Part shown: positions 4,768-38,566 of the stretch, one piece after another | How the letters are laid out: each line of letters starts with the position of its first letter | How positions within the stretch are numbered: position 1 is the first letter of the stretch | Source: a virus | DNA: 40,685 bases | Virus record (IMG/VR): IMGVR_UViG_3300012979_000010 | Coordinates: 1-40,685 of that record | Reading direction: 5' to 3' (one strand) | The notes under the pieces: model-generated | Database searches by the model: none | Seen by the model: only the letters and a program-made list of their open reading frames with translations | Told to the model about the DNA's origin: nothing | Made by a program: the position numbers and the translations under genes

Positions 4768-5949
4768 TCATCCATTCTTCAAGTTATCAAGTATCGCGCG
4801 GATAGTTTCATCCGCGTGTTTTTTGTTGATTTTCACATAGGAAAAAATAGGTCTGTTACCCTTCATAGATTGCCCGATACAATACTCTATACGTTCAAGC
4901 GAAATGCCAAGTTCAAATCCATGTTGGGCGAATGATTTACGCGCGGTGTAGTATATCACATGAGTTTCAATTCCCAACGATTGCGCCAGGATGCCGATGT
5001 ACTTCGTTATGTACTTGCGCAAATTCTCATACGATAGCTTATACCCGAAATCAATCTTCCCATTTCTGCCCATATACCTTTTAATAATAGGCTTCGCTTC
5101 TTCGGGGATAGTAAAGCACACCTTCTTATCGTTTTTCTTGGTGTTTTTCGACTTCTGCCGCTCATATTCCATCGTTGTTTTCCCCTTGAAATTGTACGAA
5201 AGCAAATCAACCATGTTAATGCCGCCAAGATAATATGATAGCATAAACGCATCACGCGCCACAACAAGAGCCTTTGCTTTTGGATCTGAATCGCGGATAA
5301 GCCTTACTTCCTCTACTGATATATCAAGTTCGCGCACTGGAATGGTCGGTTTTTCGTAGTATGCAAAAGGGTGTGTGTCATATTTAACCATGTTGTCGCG
5401 GATTGCCTGGTTTATGACCGCCTTAAGATGCGCCATGTGCGTTCCTCGCGTGGAAGGATTGAGCGAAAGCGCACGCATCATGTATATGTCGAAGTCTTTA
5501 ATTGTTCTTGGGGTAATGCCGTCAAGCATGATATCGTGCTTGCAGAATTCAATAAAATACTTCGATGTCCTGGCATATAGTTGTGCGGTAGATTTCCGAC
5601 CTTCACGGATAAGTGTATCTATGTAATCGTCCGAAGCAAGCGAGTAGGAGGTGGAACCGCTCTTAATGGTGTGCAGATATTCGATAAGCTGCTTGCATGA
5701 GTATGCATGGGTGTTAATCTTATCAAGTGCTTCCTGGTACGAATTAAGAATTGAGCGCAGTTTCATATTTATATAAGGTGCGTTAGGCACATTGACTATC
5801 TGCCCTTGTTGAAGGTCATCGGGGTTGTCAAGCTCAAAGCGAGTTACGATGTATCGCGTTTGTTGGCGATGTCCTACTGCAATTCTGATTTTGTGTTTCC
5901 CAGCCTTGTTGATTTTGGCTGGAACGATGGCAATTCTTAAAGTTGTCAT
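4768..5949 (-). CDS. int: Tyrosine recombinase / phage integrase (Bacteroidetes type with an N-terminal arm-binding domain)
   Basis: 393 aa. The N-terminus MTTLRIAIVPAKINKAGKHKIRIAVGHRQQTRYIVT is typical of Bacteroidetes integrases. It has a SAM-like core-binding region, and the C-terminal catalytic region contains ...ARKSFAQHGFELGISLERIEYCIGQSM.... It lies next to a tRNA-derived attP. Confidence 0.9.
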   Translation of the reverse strand: MTTLRIAIVPAKINKAGKHKIRIAVGHRQQTRYIVTRFELDNPDDLQQGQIVNVPNAPYINMKLRSILNSYQEALDKINTHAYSCKQLIEYLHTIKSGSTSYSLASDDYIDTLIREGRKSTAQLYARTSKYFIEFCKHDIMLDGITPRTIKDFDIYMMRALSLNPSTRGTHMAHLKAVINQAIRDNMVKYDTHPFAYYEKPTIPVRELDISVEEVRLIRDSDPKAKALVVARDAFMLSYYLGGINMVDLLSYNFKGKTTMEYERQKSKNTKKNDKKVCFTIPEEAKPIIKRYMGRNGKIDFGYKLSYENLRKYITKYIGILAQSLGIETHVIYYTARKSFAQHGFELGISLERIEYCIGQSMKGNRPIFSYVKINKKHADETIRAILDNLKNG

Positions 5950-7068: not shown

Positions 7069-7716
7069 TTACTTTGCAGATAGGCACATTAATACTTTAT
7101 ACATTGAATATATATCATCGTAGAATATGTCGAAATCGTCATAATCGGGGTTGATAGAGTGGCAAGTTATCCTATCATCGTGAATGCTCTTGCGCACGTT
7201 CTTAATTACTACACCATTGCAAGTGTCAAGAACGTATGTTTTCCCCCATTCAATAAATGAGTGGTGGTTTATCCTCTTTATTAGAATTCGGCTTCCATTA
7301 GGATATTCGGGTGTCATTGATTCGCCATATACGGTTATAGCGAAATCTACATTTTCTATTGGCGAAATAACTGCTTCACAATTTTGCAATGTTGTACCAT
7401 TTGCAGAAAATCCATCAAGGCTCCCACCTAAAGCTGATTGTGGTAGTAGATATGTAGTGTATATGCCAAGTTCCTTCAATTCCTCTTTGTTCCCTATATC
7501 TTCAAACATATCCCCTTCGCCAGTCATCAACCACGATGTTTTCACTTCGGGATATGCGTTCTTAATAATCTTGCAAAGGTCGGTACTGATGTTGTTTCTG
7601 CCGTTTAATACGTTCAGAATTCTTGTTTCTCTTTTAAGACCTATTGAACGTGCAAAGCTTGTTGGACTTTCAGCCAAATGCTCTAATAATTGCGATAGCC
7701 AGTGTACATATTTCAT
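7069..7716 (-). CDS. cI/LexA-like phage repressor with a C-terminal S24 autopeptidase domain
   Basis: The C-terminal half has VYGESMTPEYPNGSRILIKRIN...GKTYVLDTCNGVVIKNVRK, i.e. the S24 G(D/E)SM serine motif plus a downstream Lys. The N-terminal part is of HTH size. It is divergent from the early operon. Confidence 0.8.
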   Translation of the reverse strand: MKYVHWLSQLLEHLAESPTSFARSIGLKRETRILNVLNGRNNISTDLCKIIKNAYPEVKTSWLMTGEGDMFEDIGNKEELKELGIYTTYLLPQSALGGSLDGFSANGTTLQNCEAVISPIENVDFAITVYGESMTPEYPNGSRILIKRINHHSFIEWGKTYVLDTCNGVVIKNVRKSIHDDRITCHSINPDYDDFDIFYDDIYSMYKVLMCLSAK

Positions 7717-12885: not shown

Positions 12886-13349
12886 TTAAGAAGAAGAAAA
12901 AAGCAAAGCCATTACCCCTATTCGAGAAGGCAGGGGTAAAGGTAACGAAGAAGGTAGATTATGTTTCCCAGCTTGATAGGGTGTTTTCTAGATATATAAG
13001 GCTGCGTGACGCGTTTTCCGATGGCACGTTTATGTGCATAAGCTGCGGAAAAATAAAGCCGTTAGAACAAGCCGATTGCGGTCACTATCATTCAAGGCGA
13101 CACATGAACACCCGATACGATGAAGAAAACTGCCATGCGCAGTGCCGACATTGTAATCGGATGCTATACGGTAACATGGTCGCCTACTCGGATAGGTTGA
13201 AAAACAAAATCGGGCAGCTTCGCTTCGATATCCTGGCATTGAAAGCCGTTCAAACGAAGCAATGGACTGATTGGGAATTGAAGGAACTTATCAAGCACTA
13301 CAAGTTGAAGTGCGAAGAATTAGAGAAACAGAAAGGGATTAAGTTATGA
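12867..13349 (+). CDS. ninG: NinG/Rap-like protein (Cys/His-rich structure-specific nuclease family)
   Basis: FSRYIRLRDA...CISCGK...ADCGHYHSRRH...NCHAQCRHCN matches the lambda NinG family pattern. The track ORF starts at GTG 12846; ATG 12867 is preferred. Confidence 0.65.
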   Translation: MKNMWYVKKKKKAKPLPLFEKAGVKVTKKVDYVSQLDRVFSRYIRLRDAFSDGTFMCISCGKIKPLEQADCGHYHSRRHMNTRYDEENCHAQCRHCNRMLYGNMVAYSDRLKNKIGQLRFDILALKAVQTKQWTDWELKELIKHYKLKCEELEKQKGIKL

Positions 13350-13975
13350 ATAGAGAATCATTCGTATTTTACGCATCGTGGTTAGAAGCAATCAAGAATC
13401 TGCCGAGAGAGATGCAGGGCGAAGTATTGGTAGCCATAGTTGAGTATGGAATTACTGGAGAAATGCCTGCTGACCTAAAGCCGATTGCGAAAGCTTTAAT
13501 GGCGATGGTAAAGCCACAGATTGACGCAAATCGTGTGAAGTATGAGAATGGTAAGAAGGGCGGAAGGAAACCAAACGAAAACCAAACTGAAACCAAAACG
13601 AAACCAAACGAAAACCAAAACGAAACCAAAGAAGAACCTAATCTAACCAAACCCGAACCTAATGTAAATGTATATGTTAATGATAATGTTATAAAAGAAA
13701 AAGATAATAAAAAGAAAAACGTGCGTTTTTCCCCACCCACTATTGAGGAAGTTAAACAATTCATAGCTGAAAAGGGTTATAGTGTAAATGCTGAATCTTT
13801 CTTCAGCTATTACGAAAGCAACGGCTGGATGGTTGGAAGAAACAAAATGAAGAAATGGCAAGCAGCCGTAGCCAAATGGCATAACACTAATTACGGAGAG
13901 ACGAAGGCAGAAGTAGGCATGATATTGCGTGACGAAAAAAACAAGTACGATAATGACGAAGAATTATGGAAGTAA
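13346..13975 (+). CDS. Putative replication organiser/initiator protein with an internal KPNENQxETK repeat linker
   Basis: N-terminal FVFYASWLEAIKNLP... and C-terminal PPTIEEVKQFIAEKGYSVNAESFFSYYESNGWMVGRNKMKKWQAAVAKW resemble phage DnaD-like/replisome-organiser modules. It lies directly upstream of the DnaC-like loader. Confidence 0.45.
   Translation: MNRESFVFYASWLEAIKNLPREMQGEVLVAIVEYGITGEMPADLKPIAKALMAMVKPQIDANRVKYENGKKGGRKPNENQTETKTKPNENQNETKEEPNLTKPEPNVNVYVNDNVIKEKDNKKKNVRFSPPTIEEVKQFIAEKGYSVNAESFFSYYESNGWMVGRNKMKKWQAAVAKWHNTNYGETKAEVGMILRDEKNKYDNDEELWK
13567..13632 (+). repeat. 2 x 33-bp tandem repeat made of GAAA(A)CCAAA sub-repeats (iteron candidate), followed by an AT-rich tract at 13659..13720
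   Basis: gaaaccaaacgaaaaccaaactgaaaccaaaac is followed by gaaaccaaacgaaaaccaaaacgaaaccaaaga, both read directly. Confidence 0.8.
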
Positions 13976-14707: not shown

Positions 14708-15475
14708 ATGGCACTTAAACAGATAGAGTTATTCAATGACCATTTTCAAAACTTCAAGCGGTATTCAATACCAAAAGCACAACTAATTATTGCTGACCCA
14801 CCTTATAATTTAGGGAAAAACGCATACGCAAGTAACCCTGCATGGTACAAGGATGGAGATAACAAGAATGGCGAAAGCGAATTAGCAGGTAAAGAGTTTT
14901 TTGACACGGATAAGGACTTCCGACCTGCCGAGTTTATGCACTTTTGTTCGCAAATGCTTATGAAAGAACCAAAGGAAAAGGGGAAAGCACCTTGTATGAT
15001 TCTCTTTTGCGAGTATGAACAACAATTCAAGTATATAGAACTTGGGCGAAAATACGGATTGATGAACTACATTCCTTTGGTGTTCAGAAAGGATTTCAGC
15101 GCACAAGTGTTGAAGGCTAATATGAAGGTTGTTGGTAATTGCGAATACGGTTTGATTCTATATCGTGATAAGCTACCAAAGTTTAACAATAACGGAAGAA
15201 TGATATTTAATTGCTTTGATTGGGTAAGAGATACATCAACTCCTAAGATACACCCTACACAGAAACCTGTTCCATTGCTTGAACGATTGATAGAGATATT
15301 CACTGATAAGGGCGATGTAGTTATAGACCCATGCGCAGGTAGCGGAAGTACGTTGTTAGCGGCTGCACAAATGGGAAGAAGGGGATACGGATTTGAAATT
15401 AAAAAGGATTTCTACCGAGAAGCTAACCGAAAAGTCTTAAGCCGAATACAAAAGTCAATTTTTGGCGAATTATGA
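14708..15475 (+). CDS. DNA methyltransferase, N6-adenine/N4-cytosine type (beta class)
   Basis: IIADPPYNLGK (DPPY motif IV) lies N-terminal and VVIDPCAGSGSTLLAA (motif I) lies C-terminal. Confidence 0.8.
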   Translation: MALKQIELFNDHFQNFKRYSIPKAQLIIADPPYNLGKNAYASNPAWYKDGDNKNGESELAGKEFFDTDKDFRPAEFMHFCSQMLMKEPKEKGKAPCMILFCEYEQQFKYIELGRKYGLMNYIPLVFRKDFSAQVLKANMKVVGNCEYGLILYRDKLPKFNNNGRMIFNCFDWVRDTSTPKIHPTQKPVPLLERLIEIFTDKGDVVIDPCAGSGSTLLAAAQMGRRGYGFEIKKDFYREANRKVLSRIQKSIFGEL

Positions 15476-15678
15476 TACACGTAACCCAAGCCACATACTA
15501 TACCTATGGCGGAAGAATCATAGTGAAGGAATACAACACCTTCTTTTACGAACCGATTTGGAAGGTCAAAGAGAAGCTGCTTGATTCCGTATGCAAGGCG
15601 GATGATAGCGACCCGATTGTAAAAATAATAAATCTTAAATATAGAGAATATGGAAAAGAAGACATTAATCGCCTATAA
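15472..15678 (+). CDS. Hypothetical protein (68 aa)
   Basis: ORF track, with an ATGA overlap upstream. Confidence 0.5.
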   Translation: MIHVTQATYYTYGGRIIVKEYNTFFYEPIWKVKEKLLDSVCKADDSDPIVKIINLKYREYGKEDINRL

Positions 15679-16912
15679 AGGCTTTGACAAAGACATGAAG
15701 TGCCGAGGTTTTCAATACGAAGTCGGCAATGAGTACGAAACTGATAAAGCAAAAGCATGCGAAAGCGGATTCCATGCGTGCGAGAATCCTTTCGATGTGC
15801 TTGATTATTACAATGACATTAACGGAAAGTATTGCATCGTAGAGCAGTCGGGAGAGATTGATAAGGAAGATAGAAAGCAATCATCAACCAAGATAAAGAT
15901 TAAGGCAGAAATCGGTTTTGTAGGGTTGTTCAAGGCAGGAATTGAATGGCTAAAGACCGTAACAAATCCTTGTGATATGGCTGAAAACAATAGCGGTGAT
16001 TCTGCTCAAATCGGAAGTAGCGGTGATTCTGCTAAAATCGGAAGTAGCGGTGATTCTGCTCAAATCGGAAGTAGCGGTGATTCTGCTCAAATCGGAAGTA
16101 GCGGTAATTATGCTAAAATCGGAAGTAGCGGTAATTATGCTAAAATCGGAAGTAGCGGTAATTATGCTAAAATCGGAAGTAGCGGTGATTCTGCTCAAAT
16201 CGGAAGTAGCGGTAATTATGCTCAAATCGGAAGTAGCGGTAATTATGCTAAAATCGGAAGTAGCGGTGATTCTGCTCAAATCGGAAGTAGCGGTGATTCT
16301 GCTCAAATCGGAAGTAGCGGTAATTCTGCTAAAATCGGAAGTAGCGGTGATTCTGCTCAAATCGGAAGTAGCGGTAATTATGCTCAAATCGGAAGTAGCG
16401 GTAATTATGCTAAAATCGGAAGTAGCGGTAATTATGCTAAAATCGGAAGTAGCGGTTATTATGCTCAAATCGGAAGTAGCGGTAATTATGATAAAATCGG
16501 AAGTAGCGGTAATTATGCTCAAATCGGAAGTAGCGGTAATTATGATAAAATCGGAAGTAGCGGTGATTCTGCTCAAATCGGAAGTAGCGGTTATTATGCT
16601 CAAATCGGAAGTAGCGGTAATTATGCTAAAATCGGAAGTAGCGGTTATTATGCTCAAATCGGAAGTAGCGGTAATTATGCTCAAATTGATAGCACTGGAA
16701 ACGATAGTGTTATATGTTGCGCTGGATGTAACTCGATTGCAAAGGCGAAGAAAGGTAGTTGGATAACTCTTTCCGAATGGGTGTATAGCGATGAAAAACA
16801 AAGGAATATTCCTATATGCGTTAAGACCGAGTATGTGGATGGTGAGCGCATTAAAGAAGATACTTGGTATAAGTTAATTAATGGAGAATTTATTGAATAT
16901 GGAAAAGATTAG
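15650..16912 (+). CDS. Nonapeptide-repeat (beta-solenoid-like) protein with globular N- and C-terminal caps
   Basis: The N-terminal domain is KGFDKDMKCRGFQYEVGNEYETDKAKACESGFHACENPFDVLDYY. About 27 consecutive units of GSSG(D/N)(S/Y)A(Q/K)I follow, then a non-repetitive C-terminal domain. Confidence 0.8.
   Translation: MEKKTLIAYKGFDKDMKCRGFQYEVGNEYETDKAKACESGFHACENPFDVLDYYNDINGKYCIVEQSGEIDKEDRKQSSTKIKIKAEIGFVGLFKAGIEWLKTVTNPCDMAENNSGDSAQIGSSGDSAKIGSSGDSAQIGSSGDSAQIGSSGNYAKIGSSGNYAKIGSSGNYAKIGSSGDSAQIGSSGNYAQIGSSGNYAKIGSSGDSAQIGSSGDSAQIGSSGNSAKIGSSGDSAQIGSSGNYAQIGSSGNYAKIGSSGNYAKIGSSGYYAQIGSSGNYDKIGSSGNYAQIGSSGNYDKIGSSGDSAQIGSSGYYAQIGSSGNYAKIGSSGYYAQIGSSGNYAQIDSTGNDSVICCAGCNSIAKAKKGSWITLSEWVYSDEKQRNIPICVKTEYVDGERIKEDTWYKLINGEFIEYGKD
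15986..16714 (+). repeat. 27-bp tandem repeat, 26 near-perfect copies plus 1 degenerate copy
   Basis: Unit ggaagtagcggt(g/a)at(t/a)(c/a)tgct(c/a)aaatc. Copies differ at only a few positions. Every reading frame on both strands is open across it. Confidence 0.95.
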
Positions 16913-17036
16913 ATTAAAAGATGCTCTAATCTACGCAGCAAGTGTAGTAGGCACAACGATAGTATTTTTCAGTGTTATCCAGTTCCTTAATTGGTTAGCA
17001 TCAATCCCCAACACTTATAATTGGATAGCGCAATGA
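16899..17036 (+). CDS. Small membrane ORF (45 aa)
   Basis: MEKIRLKDALIYAASVVGTTIVFFSVIQFLNWLASIPNTYNWIAQ. Overlaps both neighbours. Confidence 0.35.
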   Translation: MEKIRLKDALIYAASVVGTTIVFFSVIQFLNWLASIPNTYNWIAQ

Positions 17037-17179
17037 AATATAGATTCACTTGTGGCAACAACAAGTATGCCCGAACCATCTGCATAGAAGCAGAAACGAG
17101 AGAAGAAGCCGAAAGGGAAATTAAGAAAGATTACCCGATGGCAGAGTTTAAGGAAGAAGTTAAGAAGAAAGGAAAGTAA
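17033..17179 (+). CDS. Small ORF (48 aa)
   Basis: MKYRFTCGNNKYARTICIEAETREEAEREIKKDYPMAEFKEEVKKKGK, with an ATGA overlap upstream. Confidence 0.35.
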   Translation: MKYRFTCGNNKYARTICIEAETREEAEREIKKDYPMAEFKEEVKKKGK

Positions 17180-19670: not shown

Positions 19671-21086
19671 ATGGTAACAATGCAATACCGAAAGGTGGCG
19701 GACATTGCCAAGTTGGAAGGCAATCCGCGAAAGATAGATAAGGAAGATATGGCGCGATTGAAGCAATCCATAGAAGGGTTGCCCGATTACTTTGAAGCGC
19801 ATCCAATAGTCCTTTCAGACAGAACGGGCAAACTTGTTGTTATTGATGGCAACCAACGGCTTGAAGCTGCACGTCAATTAGGGTGGGAAGAAATTCCAAC
19901 CGCCTTGCTATCGGGATTGACCGAAGAAAAGGAACGCGAAATCATTATCCGCGCCAACGTGAACAATGGCGAATGGGATATGGAATTGCTACAAGAGTGG
20001 GACAAGGAGCAGCTTGAAGATTGGGGTGTTGATGTAGAGTGGGAAGAAGAAAACGAAGATATACCAAGCATAGGTGCAAAAGGAAGCCTTGCAGAAAAAT
20101 TTGGTATTATTCCTTTTTCTGTGTTAGACACACGAAAGGGCGAATGGCAAAGCAGAAAGAAAGTATGGTTAGACTTGGGTATAAAGTCAGAGGTAGGACG
20201 GGATGAAAATATGGTATTTGCAAAATCTGTACAAAATACAGCAGTATATGAAGTAAAGAATTATTTAAGAGAGAAACTTAAAAGAGAACCTACATGGGAT
20301 GAAACAATAAAATATTGCGAAGATAAAGGTCTGAAATTGCACAAAGGAACATCTATTTTCGACCCAGTACTTTGTGAGATGATGTATCGTTGGTTTAATG
20401 TTAATGGTGGAGTAGTTATAGATCCTTTTGCTGGTGGAAGTGTTCGCGGCATAGTAGCGGCAAAGCTCGGAATGCATTACAATGGATGTGATTTGCGTCA
20501 AGAACAGATAGCTGCTAATATTGAAAACGGCAAAGAGGTGTTGACAGAAGGAGAGCCTTTCCCAAACTGGGTGTGTGGCGATAGCTGCGACATAGATAAG
20601 CACCTTGAAGGAGTAAAAGCTGACATGATAATGACTTGTCCGCCTTATGCAGATTTGGAGGTATATAGCGACAACCCGAAGGATCTATCTACAATGGATT
20701 ATAAAGACTTTCTTGAAGCATACCGCAAGATTATAAAGAAAACGGCTGATATGCTAAAAGAAAATCGTTTTGCGGTGTTTGTAGTTGGAGAGGTGCGCGA
20801 CAAGAAAGGATATTATTATAATTTTGTCGGCGACACGATAAAGGCTGGTATAGATGCAGGGCTTAAATATTACAACGAAGTAGTATTAGTAAATAATACA
20901 TCTACACTTGCTAATAGATTAGGCAGATACATGAATGTTGGTCGCAAGGTAGGAAAACATCATCAAAACGTAATTATATTTTACAAAGATGGGGGGGCGA
21001 AAAAGATTAAAGATGAATTTCCAACTATTGATTTGCGCGAGGAAGATATAAAGGCGCAAATAGAAGCAGAGGAAGGACTAATTTAA
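19671..21086 (+). CDS. ParB-like nuclease domain fused to a DNA methyltransferase
   Basis: The N-terminus LEGNPRKIDKEDMARLKQSIEGL...VVIDGNQRLEAARQLGWEEIP is a ParB N-terminal-type domain. The C-terminal part has VVIDPFAGGSVRG (motif I) and MIMTCPPYADLEVY (PPY motif IV). Confidence 0.8.
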   Translation: MVTMQYRKVADIAKLEGNPRKIDKEDMARLKQSIEGLPDYFEAHPIVLSDRTGKLVVIDGNQRLEAARQLGWEEIPTALLSGLTEEKEREIIIRANVNNGEWDMELLQEWDKEQLEDWGVDVEWEEENEDIPSIGAKGSLAEKFGIIPFSVLDTRKGEWQSRKKVWLDLGIKSEVGRDENMVFAKSVQNTAVYEVKNYLREKLKREPTWDETIKYCEDKGLKLHKGTSIFDPVLCEMMYRWFNVNGGVVIDPFAGGSVRGIVAAKLGMHYNGCDLRQEQIAANIENGKEVLTEGEPFPNWVCGDSCDIDKHLEGVKADMIMTCPPYADLEVYSDNPKDLSTMDYKDFLEAYRKIIKKTADMLKENRFAVFVVGEVRDKKGYYYNFVGDTIKAGIDAGLKYYNEVVLVNNTSTLANRLGRYMNVGRKVGKHHQNVIIFYKDGGAKKIKDEFPTIDLREEDIKAQIEAEEGLI

Positions 21087-21171: not shown

Positions 21172-21663
21172 ATGAAGTATTCACCGAACAAAATACGTGA
21201 ATGTGCCGAGTGGGTTCGGCAGAATGGATTGATGGAGTATGGCGGAGCAACCTTCAAGGAGTTTTGCGAAGCTATGGGAATAGATGATATGACGCATTAC
21301 AGATGGATGAATAATGCGGAGTATGCGGAAGCAATTAAAAGAGCGCAAGCCGATTACAAAGATACACTGGAAGTTAGCCTTGTTGATAGCCTTGTAAGGA
21401 AGGCACGCGGTTACGATATGGAAGAAAAGAAAACGGAGTATGTGAACGTTGATGGGCAGAAAAAGATTAAGCGACAAACCACCACAACAAAGCATTTCCA
21501 ACCCGACACTGGTGCGGCTATCTTCCTACTGACTAACGTAGCACCCGACAGATGGAAGAACAAGATTAACAACGAGCATTCGGGCGAGGTGGCAAGCGGA
21601 TTGACTATTATCGTGAAGGATGAAGAAGAGAAAGAACTAATCAAGTCAATAGAGAATCTGTAA
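21172..21663 (+). CDS. terS: Putative terminase small subunit
   Basis: 163 aa directly upstream of terL and sharing a stop/start overlap with it. The N-terminal part is HTH-like (FKEFCEAMGIDDMTHYRWMNN). Confidence 0.55.
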   Translation: MKYSPNKIRECAEWVRQNGLMEYGGATFKEFCEAMGIDDMTHYRWMNNAEYAEAIKRAQADYKDTLEVSLVDSLVRKARGYDMEEKKTEYVNVDGQKKIKRQTTTTKHFQPDTGAAIFLLTNVAPDRWKNKINNEHSGEVASGLTIIVKDEEEKELIKSIENL

Positions 21664-22841
21664 TGAATCCAACGAAGGTATATAAGGACAATCTTAATGC
21701 CTGGCGCGAAAGGAAGCGACTAATAGCTAATCGTGGTGGCACAAGAAGTGGGAAAACCTACTCTCTTGTGTCGCTTTTTGTTTGTGTGGCAATGCAAGCC
21801 AAGCAGAAGCGCACGATTGATATTGTGTCGGAAAGCCTTCCGCACTTGAAACGTGGTGCAATAAACGATATAGAGGACATCCTAACCAACGAACAGATGA
21901 TTGAAGATGTTCACTACATCAAGAACAGAAGCGACCACACCTACCTATTCAAGAGCGGCACGCAGATAAGGTTTTTCAGTGCTGACGATTGGGGCAAGGT
22001 CAAAGGTTCGCGTAGGGATGTGTTATTCATCAACGAGTGCAATCGTATCAGTTGGGAAGTGTACCGCCAGCTTGCGGTGCGTACTACTGAGTGCATCTTC
22101 CTTGATTGGAATCCCGATAGTGAGTTTTGGTATGAGCAGAAGGGATTGAACACGAAGGACACAACGAAAGAGATACATTCTACCTACAAGGATAACCCAT
22201 ACTTAACCGAAGTGCAAGTAGCCGAGATTGAAAGCAACAAGAGCGATGAGAATTGGTGGAAGGTGTACGGTTTGGGCGAGGTAGGTCGCCCACAAGGGGT
22301 TATCTATGACCGTTGGCAACAAGTGAACGCAATCCCCGAAGGTGCTACACTGATAGCGCGAGGTCTTGACTTCGGTTTCACGAATGACCCTACCGCGATT
22401 GTGGATGTGTACAAGTACGATGGTAAGTTGTGGCTTGATGAGCTATGCTACCAACGCGGCATGACGAATGATAAGATAGCCGAGTTATTAAGGGGCAAGG
22501 ATGGAACAACCGTAGCGGATAGCGCGGAAATGAAATCAATCACCGAGATATACAACTACGGCATTCGTAGGATAGAGCCTGCACAAAAGGGCGCAGATTC
22601 TGTGCGTGTTGGTATTGATATTCTTCGTAGGTATGAGTTGATGGTAACAAAGCGGAGCCTTAACCTTATCTACGAACTACGAAACTACAAGTGGAAGGAC
22701 AACAAAATCACTGGCGAAACGATGAACGAACCAGTGGATAAGTTCAACCACCTTCTTGATGCAGCGCGCTATGTCGCGTTGAATATGCTTTCGGAAAAAC
22801 CAACGATAAAACGCCCAAGGGCAAGAATCAGTACGATATGA
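21663..22841 (+). CDS. terL: Terminase large subunit
   Basis: Walker A NRGGTRSGKTYS. The size and the C-terminal nuclease-like part are typical of PBSX/Terminase_3-type TerL. Confidence 0.8.
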   Translation: MNPTKVYKDNLNAWRERKRLIANRGGTRSGKTYSLVSLFVCVAMQAKQKRTIDIVSESLPHLKRGAINDIEDILTNEQMIEDVHYIKNRSDHTYLFKSGTQIRFFSADDWGKVKGSRRDVLFINECNRISWEVYRQLAVRTTECIFLDWNPDSEFWYEQKGLNTKDTTKEIHSTYKDNPYLTEVQVAEIESNKSDENWWKVYGLGEVGRPQGVIYDRWQQVNAIPEGATLIARGLDFGFTNDPTAIVDVYKYDGKLWLDELCYQRGMTNDKIAELLRGKDGTTVADSAEMKSITEIYNYGIRRIEPAQKGADSVRVGIDILRRYELMVTKRSLNLIYELRNYKWKDNKITGETMNEPVDKFNHLLDAARYVALNMLSEKPTIKRPRARISTI

Positions 22842-34589: not shown

Positions 34590-37226
34590 ATGGCTAAATC
34601 ATACGAAGAAGTAAAGGATGTAATATCCGTAATCAAGAACGAAGTAGAAGATGGCAGAAATACCGCTCAACGTGTAGGCGGTGCAATGGATGACATTGTA
34701 GAATATGCGAATGAAAGTCTTGAAGCACAGGAACAACGCATCAACGAAGAATTTGTAGGCAATATGTTTACTATTCATGGTGTAATAAGTAAAAAAGCAG
34801 GTAATATTGTTACATCTGAAGAACCCTTATTTTCAACCGATTACTTGCCCATCGATAAGAGTAATGATATTATAATTATCGGTGCTGCTAACACTGATAA
34901 TTATGCTCCTTATGCTTTCTATGACGAATATTTTGATTTTATTAGTTCTTATAATGGCGAATCTGCACCAGATAGAACATATACTATCAACAAGTCTGAT
35001 ATCCCATCTAATGCAGTTTACATCCGTTGCAGCCACAATTCATCGGTGGATGAATCTAAAATAACTGGAGTAAACCTTACATCTGTCATATCAGCAGGAA
35101 TTAGAAAAAATGCGAAGAGTGGATATGGTAATGATAGTGGTGTTATAACACAAGAAATACTAACTGCAACAATGAGTGGAAATCCATTTAATTTTGAGGG
35201 CGGTGTTGCTAAAACAACAGGACTTGATTATAGCAACAGTACTTATGTCCGCACAGATTACATCTTGCTTAATCATGATTGTGACATATATGCCAGCGGT
35301 GCGAATAGTGCAAGTACAGGTAGATTGTGGTTCTATGACAAAGACAAGATGCCGATAAGTAGTTATCTTGGCGAAGAGAGTGGCGCGAAATATTACGACT
35401 TATATGTTGTAGATAAAAAGGATTTCCCAAAAAATGCGGTGTACTTCCGTTGTTCTGCATCGGTTAGCGGTAACAAGAAGTTTATTGTTATCAATTCTTC
35501 GTTATCGTCTATTGGTGTTAATGAAGGTAAAATTGTTGAAAAGGTAAATTTGTGTCCACAATACATTGAAAAGGTTGTAGGTAAGAATCTTCTATTCCCC
35601 AAAGAGTTCCTTTATGGATATTCGTATAGTGCTGACTCTGGTTATATACAGAAGGAAAGTGGTATAATGTCTAACAAGTTGCGATTATCGCCCAAGACTT
35701 ATACAATTCAAGGTGTTAGACCATTCTCTTCTTTGGTTGGTCGCGTATGTTGGTTCAATGACAAGGATGAATATATAGCGAATGATAAGATAACACTTGA
35801 TGAAGATGGTGTTGGCCAGTTGGTAATAGAAGCAGGGGATAGCAAGTATTACAATGCTGCATATTGTAGAGTGTTGTTACAGTATAATGCTGATTATCCT
35901 TTTAATGTGAATGTTGCTCAATTTGAAGAGGGCGAAACTGCAACAGAATGGGAAGAGTGCAAGACTGAACTTGTTGAAAATCCTCGTTATATAAGAGATG
36001 AGAAATTGTGTTTATTGACAGGCGCATCTAATGCGGTTGCAGGTAATGGCTGGTTTGAGAATGCTTGCGAAATGCTTGGTTATAAGCATAGGAATGTGGC
36101 GGTAAGTGGCGAATCGGTGATGCAACACGCAACGAAGGCATGGCGAGGGCTTATCTATAATGCTGATGGTACATTAACTAACAATGTTGATGGTAATGGA
36201 AAATTCGTTGGCTTGTACACTGCGGAAGAACTGGAAGATATGGATGTGCTTGTGACAAGCCATACACATAATTATGATGTGAGCTTTGAAGGCGAGACCT
36301 ACACCCCTATTGAATTACTCAATGGTTATTACGATGCGAGTGGAAAGTTTACATTGAATAAATCTTATTTGTCGCAGAAATATGTTGTTCGTGCCAACAA
36401 GGAACTTCGTATTAGCACATTCTGTAAGTATTCAGCTATACCTTATGTTATCTTCCTTGATGCTGAAGGTAATGTATTAGCTACTGACATCATACCAAGT
36501 GATACATCGGTAGGCGAATCAGTTGTAGATAGGGTTGTTATAACTCCAAACGCAACTTGCTATATGGTTGTTAAGACGGTGGCATCTGTTCCCTGCATTA
36601 AGGTGTTAGGAACTACAAGTGTTTTGAAGAAAACCGTACAAGAGTATGAATCAGTTGGTTATGACGAAAATAACAATCCATTATCTGTTGTTATGGATAA
36701 GAGTAATAGTAGTCATAGAATTGTTCCTTATGGCGGTAGTGGCGCATCTGGTACATTAGAGCCTAATAACACCATTAACGAGCGATATGCGGCTGGTTAT
36801 GATTACCTGTTGAAAAAGTATGCGTATGACTGCTATATGTTGAAGTTCAACCCACAATCAAAATGGTATGGCAGTCCGTTTGGCAAACCTTGTAATATTG
36901 TGATATGTTCTTATTGGCACGATGGATACAAAGTATTCAATGGATCTGCAAAGGTTCTTGCTAAAAGACATGGTGCATTGTATTGCGATATTGCTGGTCA
37001 AGTAGGATTTAGTTATATGCAAACCGATCCGACTGATGATAATTCGTTGAGAATATCACGATTGTATTGCAACAATTCATCGGGTAACGAGGAAGATATT
37101 CCTATTGATGGTGTGATGTACACTAAAATGGGTTGGCATGCAACAAGAGATGTTAATTCCCCGTTGATGTTAAAGCGAGGTAAGATATTGTCTGAATCGT
37201 TATTAATTGCTTGCGGAGATAAGTAA
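34590..37226 (+). CDS. Tail fibre / receptor-binding protein with repeated carbohydrate-binding-like modules and a possible SGNH-like esterase region
   Basis: 878 aa. Three to four modules of about 75 aa share (F/W)(Y/F)D...NAVY(I/F)RCS-like signatures. LLTGASNAVAGNGW...VSGESV weakly resembles SGNH block I/II. Confidence 0.55.
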   Translation: MAKSYEEVKDVISVIKNEVEDGRNTAQRVGGAMDDIVEYANESLEAQEQRINEEFVGNMFTIHGVISKKAGNIVTSEEPLFSTDYLPIDKSNDIIIIGAANTDNYAPYAFYDEYFDFISSYNGESAPDRTYTINKSDIPSNAVYIRCSHNSSVDESKITGVNLTSVISAGIRKNAKSGYGNDSGVITQEILTATMSGNPFNFEGGVAKTTGLDYSNSTYVRTDYILLNHDCDIYASGANSASTGRLWFYDKDKMPISSYLGEESGAKYYDLYVVDKKDFPKNAVYFRCSASVSGNKKFIVINSSLSSIGVNEGKIVEKVNLCPQYIEKVVGKNLLFPKEFLYGYSYSADSGYIQKESGIMSNKLRLSPKTYTIQGVRPFSSLVGRVCWFNDKDEYIANDKITLDEDGVGQLVIEAGDSKYYNAAYCRVLLQYNADYPFNVNVAQFEEGETATEWEECKTELVENPRYIRDEKLCLLTGASNAVAGNGWFENACEMLGYKHRNVAVSGESVMQHATKAWRGLIYNADGTLTNNVDGNGKFVGLYTAEELEDMDVLVTSHTHNYDVSFEGETYTPIELLNGYYDASGKFTLNKSYLSQKYVVRANKELRISTFCKYSAIPYVIFLDAEGNVLATDIIPSDTSVGESVVDRVVITPNATCYMVVKTVASVPCIKVLGTTSVLKKTVQEYESVGYDENNNPLSVVMDKSNSSHRIVPYGGSGASGTLEPNNTINERYAAGYDYLLKKYAYDCYMLKFNPQSKWYGSPFGKPCNIVICSYWHDGYKVFNGSAKVLAKRHGALYCDIAGQVGFSYMQTDPTDDNSLRISRLYCNNSSGNEEDIPIDGVMYTKMGWHATRDVNSPLMLKRGKILSESLLIACGDK

Positions 37227-37558: not shown

Positions 37559-38566
37559 ATGAGGAAGAATATGCTTAATGTAGCCTATCTGAATGGCGCA
37601 GGCGGTATTGCCATTGGTGGTGGTTCTGCTGGTGGTGGCGGTGGTAGTAGTTCTAAGGGTTGGACTGGTCATGCTGATGTGCAAGGCTTGAAGGCTATTG
37701 GTTGGACTGACGAGGATATTGAATACTATCAAGCGCATGGTGTGAATTGGAACGAGGAGGATGATGCGTATCATAAAGTTCCCGAAGATAATATTGCGTT
37801 GTATGGGGTGCTGAATGTGAACAATATATCCACTTACAAGGATAGGATTGTGTATCTGCCGAAGATTGATACAAGTGGGGTGACGAGTATGAATTATAAG
37901 TTTAATGGTTGTCAAATTCTTGTTGCAATTCCGCAGTTAGATACAAGCAGTGTAACGAGTATGAGTGAAATGTTCAATAATTGCTATTCTCTTGTTTCCA
38001 TTCCGCAGTTGAATACAAGCAGTGTAACGAGTATGAGTAGTATATTCAAAAATTGCTATTCTCTTGTTTCCATTCCGCAGTTGAATACAAGCAGTGTAAC
38101 GAGTATGAGTAGTATGTTCAGTAATTGCTATTCTCTTGTTTCCATTCCGCAATTAGATACAAGTAAGGTTACTAATATGAGCAGTATGTTCAGTAATTGC
38201 TATTCTCTTGTTTCCATTCCGCAGTTAGATACAAGTAATACAGAGTATATGCTTAGTCTGTTCAGTAATTGTTATTCTCTTACTGCCATTCCGCAGTTGA
38301 ATACAAGTAGGGTTACGGATATGAATAGTATGTTAAATTATTGCTATTCTATACAAACCGCTAAAATTAAAAACGTAAAATTGGCATTGCAAGTGAAGAA
38401 TACATCATTATTAAACAAGGAAAGTTTGCTCTACATTATTAACAACGAGGCTGCTACGAGTGCAATTACGATAACATTGAGTAGTTACATCTACGATAAG
38501 TATGTGAACGATGCAGATGTAGTGGCGGCATTGGCTAATCATCCTAACATTTCAATAGCTAAATAG
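37559..38566 (+). CDS. BspA-type leucine-rich-repeat protein with a Gly-rich N-terminal linker
   Basis: Seven 23-aa units of the form SLVSIPQLNTSSVTSMSSMFSNCY, preceded by GGGSAGGGGGSSS. Confidence 0.75.
   Translation: MRKNMLNVAYLNGAGGIAIGGGSAGGGGGSSSKGWTGHADVQGLKAIGWTDEDIEYYQAHGVNWNEEDDAYHKVPEDNIALYGVLNVNNISTYKDRIVYLPKIDTSGVTSMNYKFNGCQILVAIPQLDTSSVTSMSEMFNNCYSLVSIPQLNTSSVTSMSSIFKNCYSLVSIPQLNTSSVTSMSSMFSNCYSLVSIPQLDTSKVTNMSSMFSNCYSLVSIPQLDTSNTEYMLSLFSNCYSLTAIPQLNTSRVTDMNSMLNYCYSIQTAKIKNVKLALQVKNTSLLNKESLLYIINNEAATSAITITLSSYIYDKYVNDADVVAALANHPNISIAK
37847..38329 (+). repeat. 69-bp in-frame tandem repeats (7 units; the central 4-5 are nearly identical at DNA level)
   Basis: ttccattccgcagttgaatacaagcagtgtaacgagtatgagtagtatgttcagtaattgctattctcttgtt recurs with few substitutions. 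Confidence 0.85.

Follow-up and report, generated by a model that had tools for sequence, protein, structure and literature searches.

The 40,685-nucleotide viral record IMGVR_UViG_3300012979_000010 (positions 1 to 40,685; this whole stretch is called the window below) contains on its plus strand, at 15650-16912, an ATG-initiated open reading frame (ORF) of 420 amino acids (aa) plus a stop codon, the central part of which is a long 27-bp tandem repeat. The protein that it encodes belongs to the family defined by Pfam DUF7666 and PHROG 4433 and is composed of four parts: at the N-terminus a head with a Cys3His motif, then a helix, the tandem array of nonapeptides and, at the C-terminus, a cap.

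The repeat gene and its array

When the window was scanned with Tandem Repeats Finder (TRF), the array was detected at 15991-16686 with a period of 27, 25.8 copies, 93% matches and a score of 1147, and no second repeat in the window came near this score. A preliminary description of this DNA had counted 26 units plus a degenerate one, differing at a few positions and represented by a handful of variants. Both observations were borne out, with 25 units in exact register, one degenerate unit at each end, and 8 DNA variants among the 25 units, which differ at four non-synonymous nucleotide columns. These are column 13 (codon 5, position 1; G/A/T, giving D/N/Y), column 17 (codon 6, position 2; C/A, giving S/Y), column 20 (codon 7, position 2; C/A, giving A/D, in two units) and column 22 (codon 8, position 1; C/A, giving Q/K), codons 5, 6 and 8 being the hypervariable ones of each unit. 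The D or N proposed earlier for position 5 is therefore incomplete, as Tyr also occurs there. The sole synonymous difference among the 25 units is found in the last of them. The array is a coding minisatellite. In the degenerate unit that leads into the cap, the motif (D/E/N)STG(E/N)DSV is kept in the relatives aligned.

The ORF is a real, intact gene. Intact ORFs were found in at least 91 of 160 related loci, most of the others being cut by contig ends or N gaps, so that disruption of the ORF in most natural copies, which had been named as a possible objection, was not what was found. The same count, together with the fact that 27-bp units keep changes in frame, argues against the earlier proposal of a contingency locus in the on/off sense. 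Neither a signal peptide nor a transmembrane segment was detected in the window protein (maximum 19-residue Kyte-Doolittle hydropathy, 0.87). The protein is slightly acidic: its net charge is about -7 (head -4, array -2 and cap -1).

Two ORFs in other frames also cover the array, at 15972-16766 (+) and 15950-16801 (-), with 264 and 283 aa, respectively. They are reading-frame shadows of the repeat and not genes; as arrays differ synonymously from each other, the peptides of such shadows would not be conserved. A role of the repeat at the DNA level, as iterons or binding sites, was also rejected, since units differ synonymously between genes and the peptide is conserved.

Membership of the DUF7666 family

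Residues 7-95 matched Pfam DUF7666 (PF24703), a domain of approximately 95 residues with a gathering score of 27 bits, at 114.4 bits (E 3.6e-33) over profile positions 2-94 of 95. The head plus the first part of the array (aa 3-227) matched phrog_4433 (E 4e-50), and the C-terminal cap matched phrog_27197 (E 5.2e-16, aa 323-417), whereas the only other Pfam match was to Collagen, without an individually significant stretch. When 1.84 billion representatives of clusters at 50% identity were searched exhaustively with HMMER, 7,030 clusters were matched at E <= 1e-3, of which 4,345 also passed E <= 1e-10. A word-indexed search returned at least 8,000 full-length relatives (E <= 1e-10), every one of which had the architecture of the window protein. 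The earlier suggestion that the Cys/His N-terminal domain recurs elsewhere was therefore correct, and the C-terminal domain described as distinct is indeed a separate, conserved unit that was well folded in the structure prediction described below.

The family is hosted by temperate phages of Bacteroidota, Bacillota and Pseudomonadota. Prophage members were found in gut Bacteroidota and Bacillota, Salmonella, Pseudomonas, Acinetobacter and Haemophilus. Those of cultured phages include, in Salmonella, ES18 gp53 ('function unknown'; with a record from 2005, the oldest sequenced member found), SEN22 gp35 ('c-type lectin precursor'), S135, S107 and Emek, and in Pseudomonas, YA3 (QDB70960), phi1, phi2, TC7 and the BR/CF series; further members belong to Acinetobacter, Ralstonia, Vibrio and Blautia phages. 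The SEN22 gene had no match in complete E. coli genomes.

The window protein shares the head with ES18 gp53, SEN22 gp35 and the YA3 protein (E ~1e-33 to 1e-34; for SEN22 and YA3, ~1e-34 against DUF7666), and it also shares with the phage members of the family the order of head, helix, nine-residue units and cap, the two hypervariable residues after a Gly and the position in an early operon. It differs from them in the backbone of the unit, which is GSSGxxA(Q/K)I in the window and NTGxxSAA(T/S) in the proteobacterial phages, and in the third variable position (Q/K), a feature of the window clade. With 26 units, the window array is long for this clade (median ~15, range 8-33).

No paper was found on DUF7666 or on the repeat peptides. 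The family is already catalogued (Pfam, PHROGs, GenBank), but the organisation of its units around repeat-variable di-residues appears to be undescribed in the literature searched. One machine-learning paper on phage-host relations has a 'ydhT' feature, which is most likely a species marker.

Some records of the family deserve separate mention. In Prevotella sp. oral taxon 376 F0043 (NZ_PYXG01000001.1) two gene copies, L097 and L098, lie ~90 kb apart and have identical 16-unit arrays. A complete 210-aa member with only 2-3 units is encoded in L168 (CP148888.1) and in ~20 similar Salmonella 5.87-kb circular 'plasmids', the rest of which is a lambdoid immunity region (cI-like, cro-like, cII, ParA and N antiterminator). 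In Vibrio phage 1.185.O (GenBank MG592551.1) a homologous array is annotated as four 'CRISPR_spacer' features, probably a false positive of a CRISPR finder on the 27-bp repeat.

Evolution of the arrays

To compare arrays across the family, they were taken from 80 loci of IMG/VR and as many of genomes, from several phages in GenBank and from the protein matches. Among 77 arrays of the GSSG type, heterozygosity at synonymous third positions was 0.02-0.08 within arrays, whereas between the consensus units of different genes it reached 0.5-0.69 at synonymous sites, with the peptide staying GSSGxxAxI. The array is therefore under concerted evolution, its units being near-identical within a gene and its synonymous codons differing between genes. 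As synonymous sites are uniform within arrays and different between them, selection acts on the protein and homogenisation on the DNA, and the near-identity of the units is maintained and not merely recent. The recent expansion invoked in the preliminary description is thus only part of the explanation: the nonapeptide itself is old and has been kept in different phyla, and its near-identity within an array comes from continuing homogenisation.

In contrast to this uniformity, heterozygosity within the same 77 arrays was 0.55, 0.42 and 0.44 at columns 13, 17 and 22, respectively. The pattern extends to a set of 306 arrays, whose unit backbones number more than 20 (GxxA(Q/K)IGSS, GxxSAATNT, GxxGAASAT, GxxGASSAT and others). 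In this set variability was 0.4-0.55 per column at the two residues after the invariant Gly and <= 0.1 at other backbone positions, except for the Q/K site of the window clade. The first variable residue was D in 42%, Y in 26% and N in 24% of ~3,700 units, these three together accounting for 92%, and His was nearly absent; the second was Y, S, R, D, G, Q, N, C or W. SEN22 and YA3, both of them isolate phages, have DNA units that do not differ outside the two variable codons.

Arrays also change in length. Loci with 100% identical flanks (330 bp upstream and 230 bp downstream) had 22, 19 and 16 units in one set (L002, L007 and L017), 17, 18 and 19 in another (L016, L046 and L055), and 25 versus 13 in the pair formed by the window and L001, most of these being short-read assemblies. 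Block duplications were detected, with a 7-unit block present twice in L016 and a 5-unit block three times in L005, and one whole unit was converted between L031 and L033. Identical arrays were found only between copies from one genome or one sample. Arrays therefore gain, lose and convert units or blocks faster than their flanks take a single substitution. This high rate of repeat-number change relative to point mutation is a property of contingency loci that the array does have, and ongoing copy-number change had been anticipated. Among Salmonella isolate phages with N-terminal domains at least 90% identical, there were 3 (S135, S107 and S.Kent), 10-11 (ES18) and 21 (SEN22) units, and the Pseudomonas phages examined had 10 (BR208a) and 28 (YA3). 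In an evolution experiment with Serratia symbiotica, an in-frame deletion of 54 bp (2 x 27) was reported in a 1413-nt gene, 'ydhT_1' (PMC12505973), which by length and annotation may encode a repeat protein of this type.

Copy number in the window

A sister of the window phage gave a direct comparison. The 312-aa protein P0002 is encoded on a 40,048-bp ENA contig, the flanks of which, compared over 16.6 kb, have 99.6-99.9% identity to the window. Its array has 14 units instead of 26, corresponding to window units 1-4, 13-14 and 19-26; relative to the window it lacks 8 units in one place and 4 in another, two in-frame deletions whose endpoints fall within identical unit sequence. This difference is either real copy-number variation or an assembly collapse.

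The array could be real and its 26-unit count and order be in part a product of assembly, through a chimera of variants from the population or a mis-resolved graph path, an account that we regard as possible but unlikely. It would explain the near-identical contig with 14 units, and the exact 420-aa protein was absent from a collection of 15 billion proteins in which the 312-aa form was present. Furthermore, about a quarter of the genome contigs and several IMG/VR contigs end within arrays, and the record of Bacteroides phage BF1-TP2 begins inside its own array. On the other side, the longest internal exact repeat of the window array is 103 bp and every 127-mer is unique, so that reads of 150 nt, or a k of at least 127, could in principle be enough to resolve the array. 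Relatives also have arrays of 19-34 units, some of them in genomes that are complete or come from isolates (YA3, 28; SEN22, 21; B. thetaiotaomicron BFG-119, 19), and endpoints in identical unit sequence, as seen for the deletions relative to L001, are what real recombination would give. Exact searches with 41-nt flanks in metagenome and viral contigs produced no third copy. The count of 26 units in the window is therefore plausible, although provisional, and the warning that the copy number is unstable or hard to assemble was justified.

In nine further loci (L086, L102, L109, L112, L129, L131, L143, L164 and L165) runs of N, due to scaffold gaps or to masking, fall exactly within the arrays of the genome records, a further sign that these defeat assembly.

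Head, cap and predicted structure

In the head, residues C18, C37, H42 and C44 (C-x18-C-x4-H-x-C; C...C..GFHxC) were invariant in two alignments, and the Cys/His motif was present in 503 of 512 family sequences; these four residues may form a structural Zn site. The head domain also occurs in giant-virus proteins, as revealed by matches in BFVD. In the cap, the motif VDGxxIKxDTWYxLxxGEFVE is conserved in relatives from Bacteroidota, Salmonella and Pseudomonas.

The full-length protein was modelled with AlphaFold2 (AF2) from a 53-sequence alignment, with a mean predicted local distance difference test score (pLDDT) of 71. As proposed in the preliminary description, which had suggested this prediction as a check, a regular strand-turn solenoid was obtained between two well-folded ends: pLDDT was 80-96 for the head (aa 1-110), 50-69 for the array and 86-92 for the cap (aa 350-420), which consists of four to five strands. 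Each unit of the array was predicted as a strictly regular six-residue strand plus a three-residue turn, S6-A7-Q8-I9-G1-S2 being the strand and S3-G4-x5 the turn. On this model A7, I9 and S2 would point inward and x6, x8 and G1 would lie on the opposite face, and thus the three variable positions would be located in the turn or on the face without the conserved Ala and Ile. We infer that the array folds as a beta-solenoid. It would not be a solenoid new to databases, since the nonapeptide is already modelled in the NCBIfam family of YdhT and present in YdhT of E. coli K-12 and in ES18 gp53; what stands of the earlier suggestion is the predicted regular strand-turn solenoid.

When the head was modelled separately, a pLDDT of 91.5 and a predicted template modelling score (pTM) of 0.82 were obtained, and the linker helix 89-105 recurred. 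This domain-only model had no significant fold neighbour in the PDB (best E 1.2), and a profile search of PDB sequences revealed no sequence relative of the head. An ADP-ribosyltransferase fold was considered for the head and rejected, as the match to Arr (2hw2), the top PDB match of the full-length model with E 0.2, was absent with the domain-only model.

Genomic context

The window is the genome of a temperate gut phage with a lambdoid-style organisation, as deduced from PHROG and Pfam scans, with a G+C content of 41%. Bacteroides phage BF1-TP2 and Bacteroidales genomes, among them those of Porphyromonadaceae, Cryptobacteroides and Prevotella, contain the nearest relatives of the repeat gene. 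After the repressor gene come, in order, genes for Erf, a RecE-like exonuclease, a single-stranded DNA-binding protein (SSB), NinB, NinG, a DUF6291 protein and a DnaC-like loader. On its 3' side the repeat gene is followed by about ten small ORFs without an assigned role and then by the ParB-methyltransferase fusion, the terminase gene lying 5 kb downstream (Table 1). By its position, the repeat gene is a predicted early or middle accessory gene; its placement in this region, beside a methyltransferase and outside the tail module, had been correctly described.

Table 1. Coordinates of the repeat gene, its parts and the main landmarks of the window.
Feature	Position	Strand	Evidence
Complete coding sequence, DUF7666 / nonapeptide-repeat protein	15650..16912	+	ORF list, Pfam DUF7666 and PHROG 4433, homologues
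N-terminal head, aa 7-95, Pfam DUF7666	15668..15934	+	E 3.6e-33; C18, C37, H42, C44
Alpha-helical linker, aa 89-112, head to array	15914..15985	+	AF2 helices 89-105, 107-110
First, degenerate unit NNSGDSAQI	15986..16012	+	Register analysis
25 exact-register 27-bp units, GSSG-[D/N/Y]-[S/Y]-[A/D]-[Q/K]-I	16013..16687	+	TRF, per-column variation, AF2
Last, degenerate unit DSTGNDSVI, transition into cap	16688..16714	+	Register analysis
C-terminal cap, aa 356-420, CCAG...GSWITLSEW...VDGERIKEDTWYKLINGEFIEY	16715..16909	+	phrog_27197, AF2, conserved motif
Integrase	4768-5949	-	PHROG/Pfam scans
CI-like repressor	7069-7716	-	PHROG/Pfam scans
N6/N4 DNA methyltransferase, stand-alone, 5' of repeat gene	14708-15475		PHROG/Pfam scans
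ParB-N-terminal/methyltransferase fusion	19671-21086		PHROG/Pfam scans
Large terminase (TerL), then ClpP-like protease and tail-region genes	21663-22841		PHROG/Pfam scans

Across the family, tblastn with 21 window neighbours showed that none of them was conserved beside the gene in 160 loci, and therefore the gene behaves as a self-contained cassette. In ES18, SEN22, S135, S107 and Emek it lies directly after the N-like antiterminator gene in PL, ahead of cIII, kil and erf; in Pseudomonas phage YA3 it is downstream of cI, in a B. thetaiotaomicron circular element it is ahead of replication genes, and in other prophages (two contexts) it is found among small early ORFs near methyltransferases and Mom. 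In lambda and P22 the slot after N is the one that holds ral and sieB, and the early-operon slot of the family would match it by analogy of position only. In the annotation of Emek (L174, JQ806763.1) the family member has a frameshift with respect to ES18 gp53, and it ends prematurely after one unit; this phage isolate can therefore grow without the gene.

Approximately 4% of the top representatives carry an extra N-terminal domain, A1S_2505 (NCBIfam NF049995, 'phage non-structural protein', E ~1e-43), fused to the DUF7666 head, array and cap (P0266, P0298, P0361, P0369, P0376 and P0381). This domain has a weak profile similarity to macro domains (OARD1/TARG1-like), and its fusion hints at ADP-ribose-linked processes, which is a lead and not evidence. 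The papers found on A1S_2505 had no bearing on function.

Some other features of the window were recorded in passing. The accessory region with the repeat gene is bracketed by the two DNA methyltransferase genes, and a small ORF within it (17021-17179) gave a weak, sub-threshold DpnD/PcfM-like match. At 13564-13667, inside ORF 13346-13975 (DUF6291/phrog_15768), which is directly upstream of the DnaC-like helicase loader gene, there are short AAACCAAAC-type tandem repeats with TRF periods of 11, 22 and 33; by analogy with lambda O/ori, these may be origin iterons within a replication-initiator gene. Finally, ORF 37559-38566 contains at 37918-38350 six 72-bp tandem repeats encoding 24-residue BspA-like leucine-rich repeats (SLVSIPQLNTSSVTSMSSMFxNCY); it adjoins the gene of an 878-aa DUF5040 protein (34590-37226) and is probably part of a receptor-binding or tail module.

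Relation to known repeat proteins

The closest chromosomal counterpart of the array is E. coli K-12 YdhT (b1669), which contains ~15 units of the nonapeptide x-S-x-G-x-x-A-x-I, as found in the window. In BLASTP comparisons it aligned with the window array at E 1e-25 and 35-40% identity over ~130 aa, and the array matched the YdhT equivalog model NF007410 of NCBIfam (E 1.7e-40, 139.3 bits), far below its 300-bit cut-off and in the repeat region only. In contrast to the window protein, YdhT has an unrelated N-terminus without DUF7666, its units are divergent and not homogenised, and its gene is chromosomal, within the ydhYVWXUT operon. Its C-terminal ...Y-x-L-x-x-x-x-F-V-E tail looks like that of the window protein, although the pairwise similarity was not significant (E 0.077). 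The nonapeptide solenoid is thus a module that is present both in a chromosomal protein and in phage proteins.

The array model also has small inward positions (Ala, Ser or Gly) as do trimeric-autotransporter heads, left-handed beta-helix acyltransferases and the Lolium ice-binding protein, although the repeats of such beta-helix and beta-roll proteins are of 7/14, 6 and 14-15 residues and not of nine. The window protein matched neither Hep_Hag nor YadA nor the hexapeptide families of Pfam.

That the array is a target of diversity-generating retroelements (DGRs) was also considered and rejected. A scan of window ORFs, which covered all the large ones but not the complete set, revealed no reverse-transcriptase domain, no copy of a unit that could be a template repeat was found outside the array, and the adenine-specific pattern of such elements was not present, since other adenines of the array, including synonymous ones, are invariant.

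Proposed role and alternatives

The above results led us to consider, with no more than moderate confidence, that the gene encodes an intact, non-structural accessory protein of a temperate phage, in which the array is a quickly repatternable binding surface or scaffold. The protein would be cytoplasmic and made early in infection. Its solenoid would act as a binding surface or as a scaffold that sets a length, quickly repatterned by the changes in units described above, and the constant head and cap would use it to engage a macromolecule of the host or of a rival phage, most likely in phage-host defence or counter-defence. The fast change of repeat number and of two residues predicted to be on the surface suggests a role in a phage-host arms race.

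Several observations weigh against this proposal. The evidence for a role in binding or defence comes only from gene position, architecture and mode of evolution; an experimental or annotated function was found for no member of the family, and PADLOC gave no defence-system match. Regarding the fold, the AF2 confidence of the array is low and the model leaves two or three units per turn, whereas the beta-helix and beta-roll matches obtained with Foldseek for the full-length model against the PDB were not significant (E > 0.5), the best of them, behind one spurious top match, being left-handed beta-helices, trimeric-autotransporter heads and an ice-binding beta-roll. Regarding the evolution, most of the arrays that were compared had been assembled from short metagenomic reads, and in such assemblies repeats may be collapsed or scrambled. 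Moreover, the order of unit types was not distinguishable from random at lags 1-7 (|z| <= 2.1), which fits neutral shuffling and diversifying selection equally well; nor did the order of units indicate how many of them make up a turn of the solenoid, as there was no lag-2 or lag-3 correlation, in a comparison biased by the loss of consecutive identical units from short-read assemblies.

Neutral instability is the main rival of this proposal. According to it, the array is a tolerant spacer or stalk of little consequence in length and surface, under selection for foldability only; recombination among identical units would generate noise in their number and order, and the function would reside in the head and cap. 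We regard it as rather unlikely, although the random order of unit variants is as it would predict, no target is known for the array, and there are predicted proteins with apparently complete ends and 1-4 units (P0129, P0123 and S135), for which short-read collapse is possible. What stands against it is the restricted alphabet of the first variable residue: His (CAY) is as reachable by mutation as the D, N and Y that dominate, and yet it is nearly absent; D, N and Y all persist within arrays despite the homogenisation of the rest; and the same alphabet is used in unrelated unit backbones from three phyla. These points favour selection acting on the variable residues themselves.

A bolder form of the proposed binding role, which we consider speculative and improbable, is that DUF7666 arrays constitute an unrecognised diversification system driven by recombination, in which the rungs with their repeat-variable di-residues would provide a programmable recognition surface. 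The target would be a polymer or protein of the host or of a rival phage, and the system would be analogous to those of transcription activator-like effectors (TALEs) and PPR proteins, or to DGRs, with a new fold and without reverse transcriptase.

Less probable still is a modular code, in which the variable di-residue of each unit would contact one unit of a periodic ligand (nucleotide, sugar or peptide) as in TALE, PPR and PUF proteins, so that arrays with different units would have different targets. Block duplication and conversion of near-identical units with variable di-residues are evolutionary hallmarks of TALE arrays, and the window family is similar to these in its near-identical tandem units, its two adjacent hypervariable residues, its variable copy number, its conserved flanking domains, its diversification by recombination and the difficulty of its assembly. 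Its alphabet is rich in N, D, Y, R, Q, W and S, and paralogue-like genes with identical flanks have different arrays, with block duplication and conversion. However, the resemblance is one of organisation and evolution only, without homology. TALE units are helical hairpins of 33-35 residues, whereas those of the window are predicted to be nine-residue strand-turn units, a different fold class; TALEs bind DNA, whereas the window protein has a net acidic charge, unlike typical nucleic-acid binders. In addition, no conserved 'word' or target is evident, and predicted proteins with only 1-4 units exist in the databases.

A virion fibre or collagen-like structural protein is very improbable. The window protein gave weak PHROG tail-fibre matches and Pfam and PDB collagen matches, and some relatives are labelled 'collagen-like', 'tail fiber' or 'c-type lectin', but Gly is not found at every third residue, the longest G-X-Y run is of 2 triplets, position 7 is Ala and the collagen matches are compositional. 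The genes of every annotated relative are in early operons far from structural modules, the window gene is located 5 kb upstream of the terminase gene, and NCBIfam calls the fused A1S_2505 family 'non-structural'.

Least credible of all is an RTX-type calcium-binding beta-roll (GGxGxDxUx) of a secreted protein: the array shares with RTX proteins the nine-residue period, the Gly-rich tandem repeat and the beta-roll-like prediction, with very weak PDB sequence matches to haemolysin and CyaA RTX blocks (E 0.003-0.4), but, as the preliminary description had already seen, its motif is a different one. A regular-expression search found neither GGxGxD nor GxGxD in the protein, which thus lacks the consensus and the calcium-ligand Asp, and there was no Pfam RTX match; the predicted lengths of strand and turn are inverted relative to RTX (six-residue strands and three-residue turns, instead of three-residue strands), and RTX proteins are secreted, whereas the window protein is phage-encoded and presumably cytoplasmic, with no secretion genes near the repeat gene.

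Significance

The family is very large and occupies an accessory slot of early operons, and yet the literature search found no paper on it. Its arrays break metagenome assemblies, have at least once entered GenBank as CRISPR spacers and are labelled as collagen, lectin or tail fibre, all of which can be corrected. The family evolves in a way that is uncommon among intracellular phage proteins, with a homogenised backbone, two varying residues per unit and an array that differs between otherwise identical phages, a pattern that would be expected of a molecule involved in an arms race. If the array is indeed a repatternable binding surface, nature would have in it a generator of diversity of a new type, and engineering a compact scaffold.

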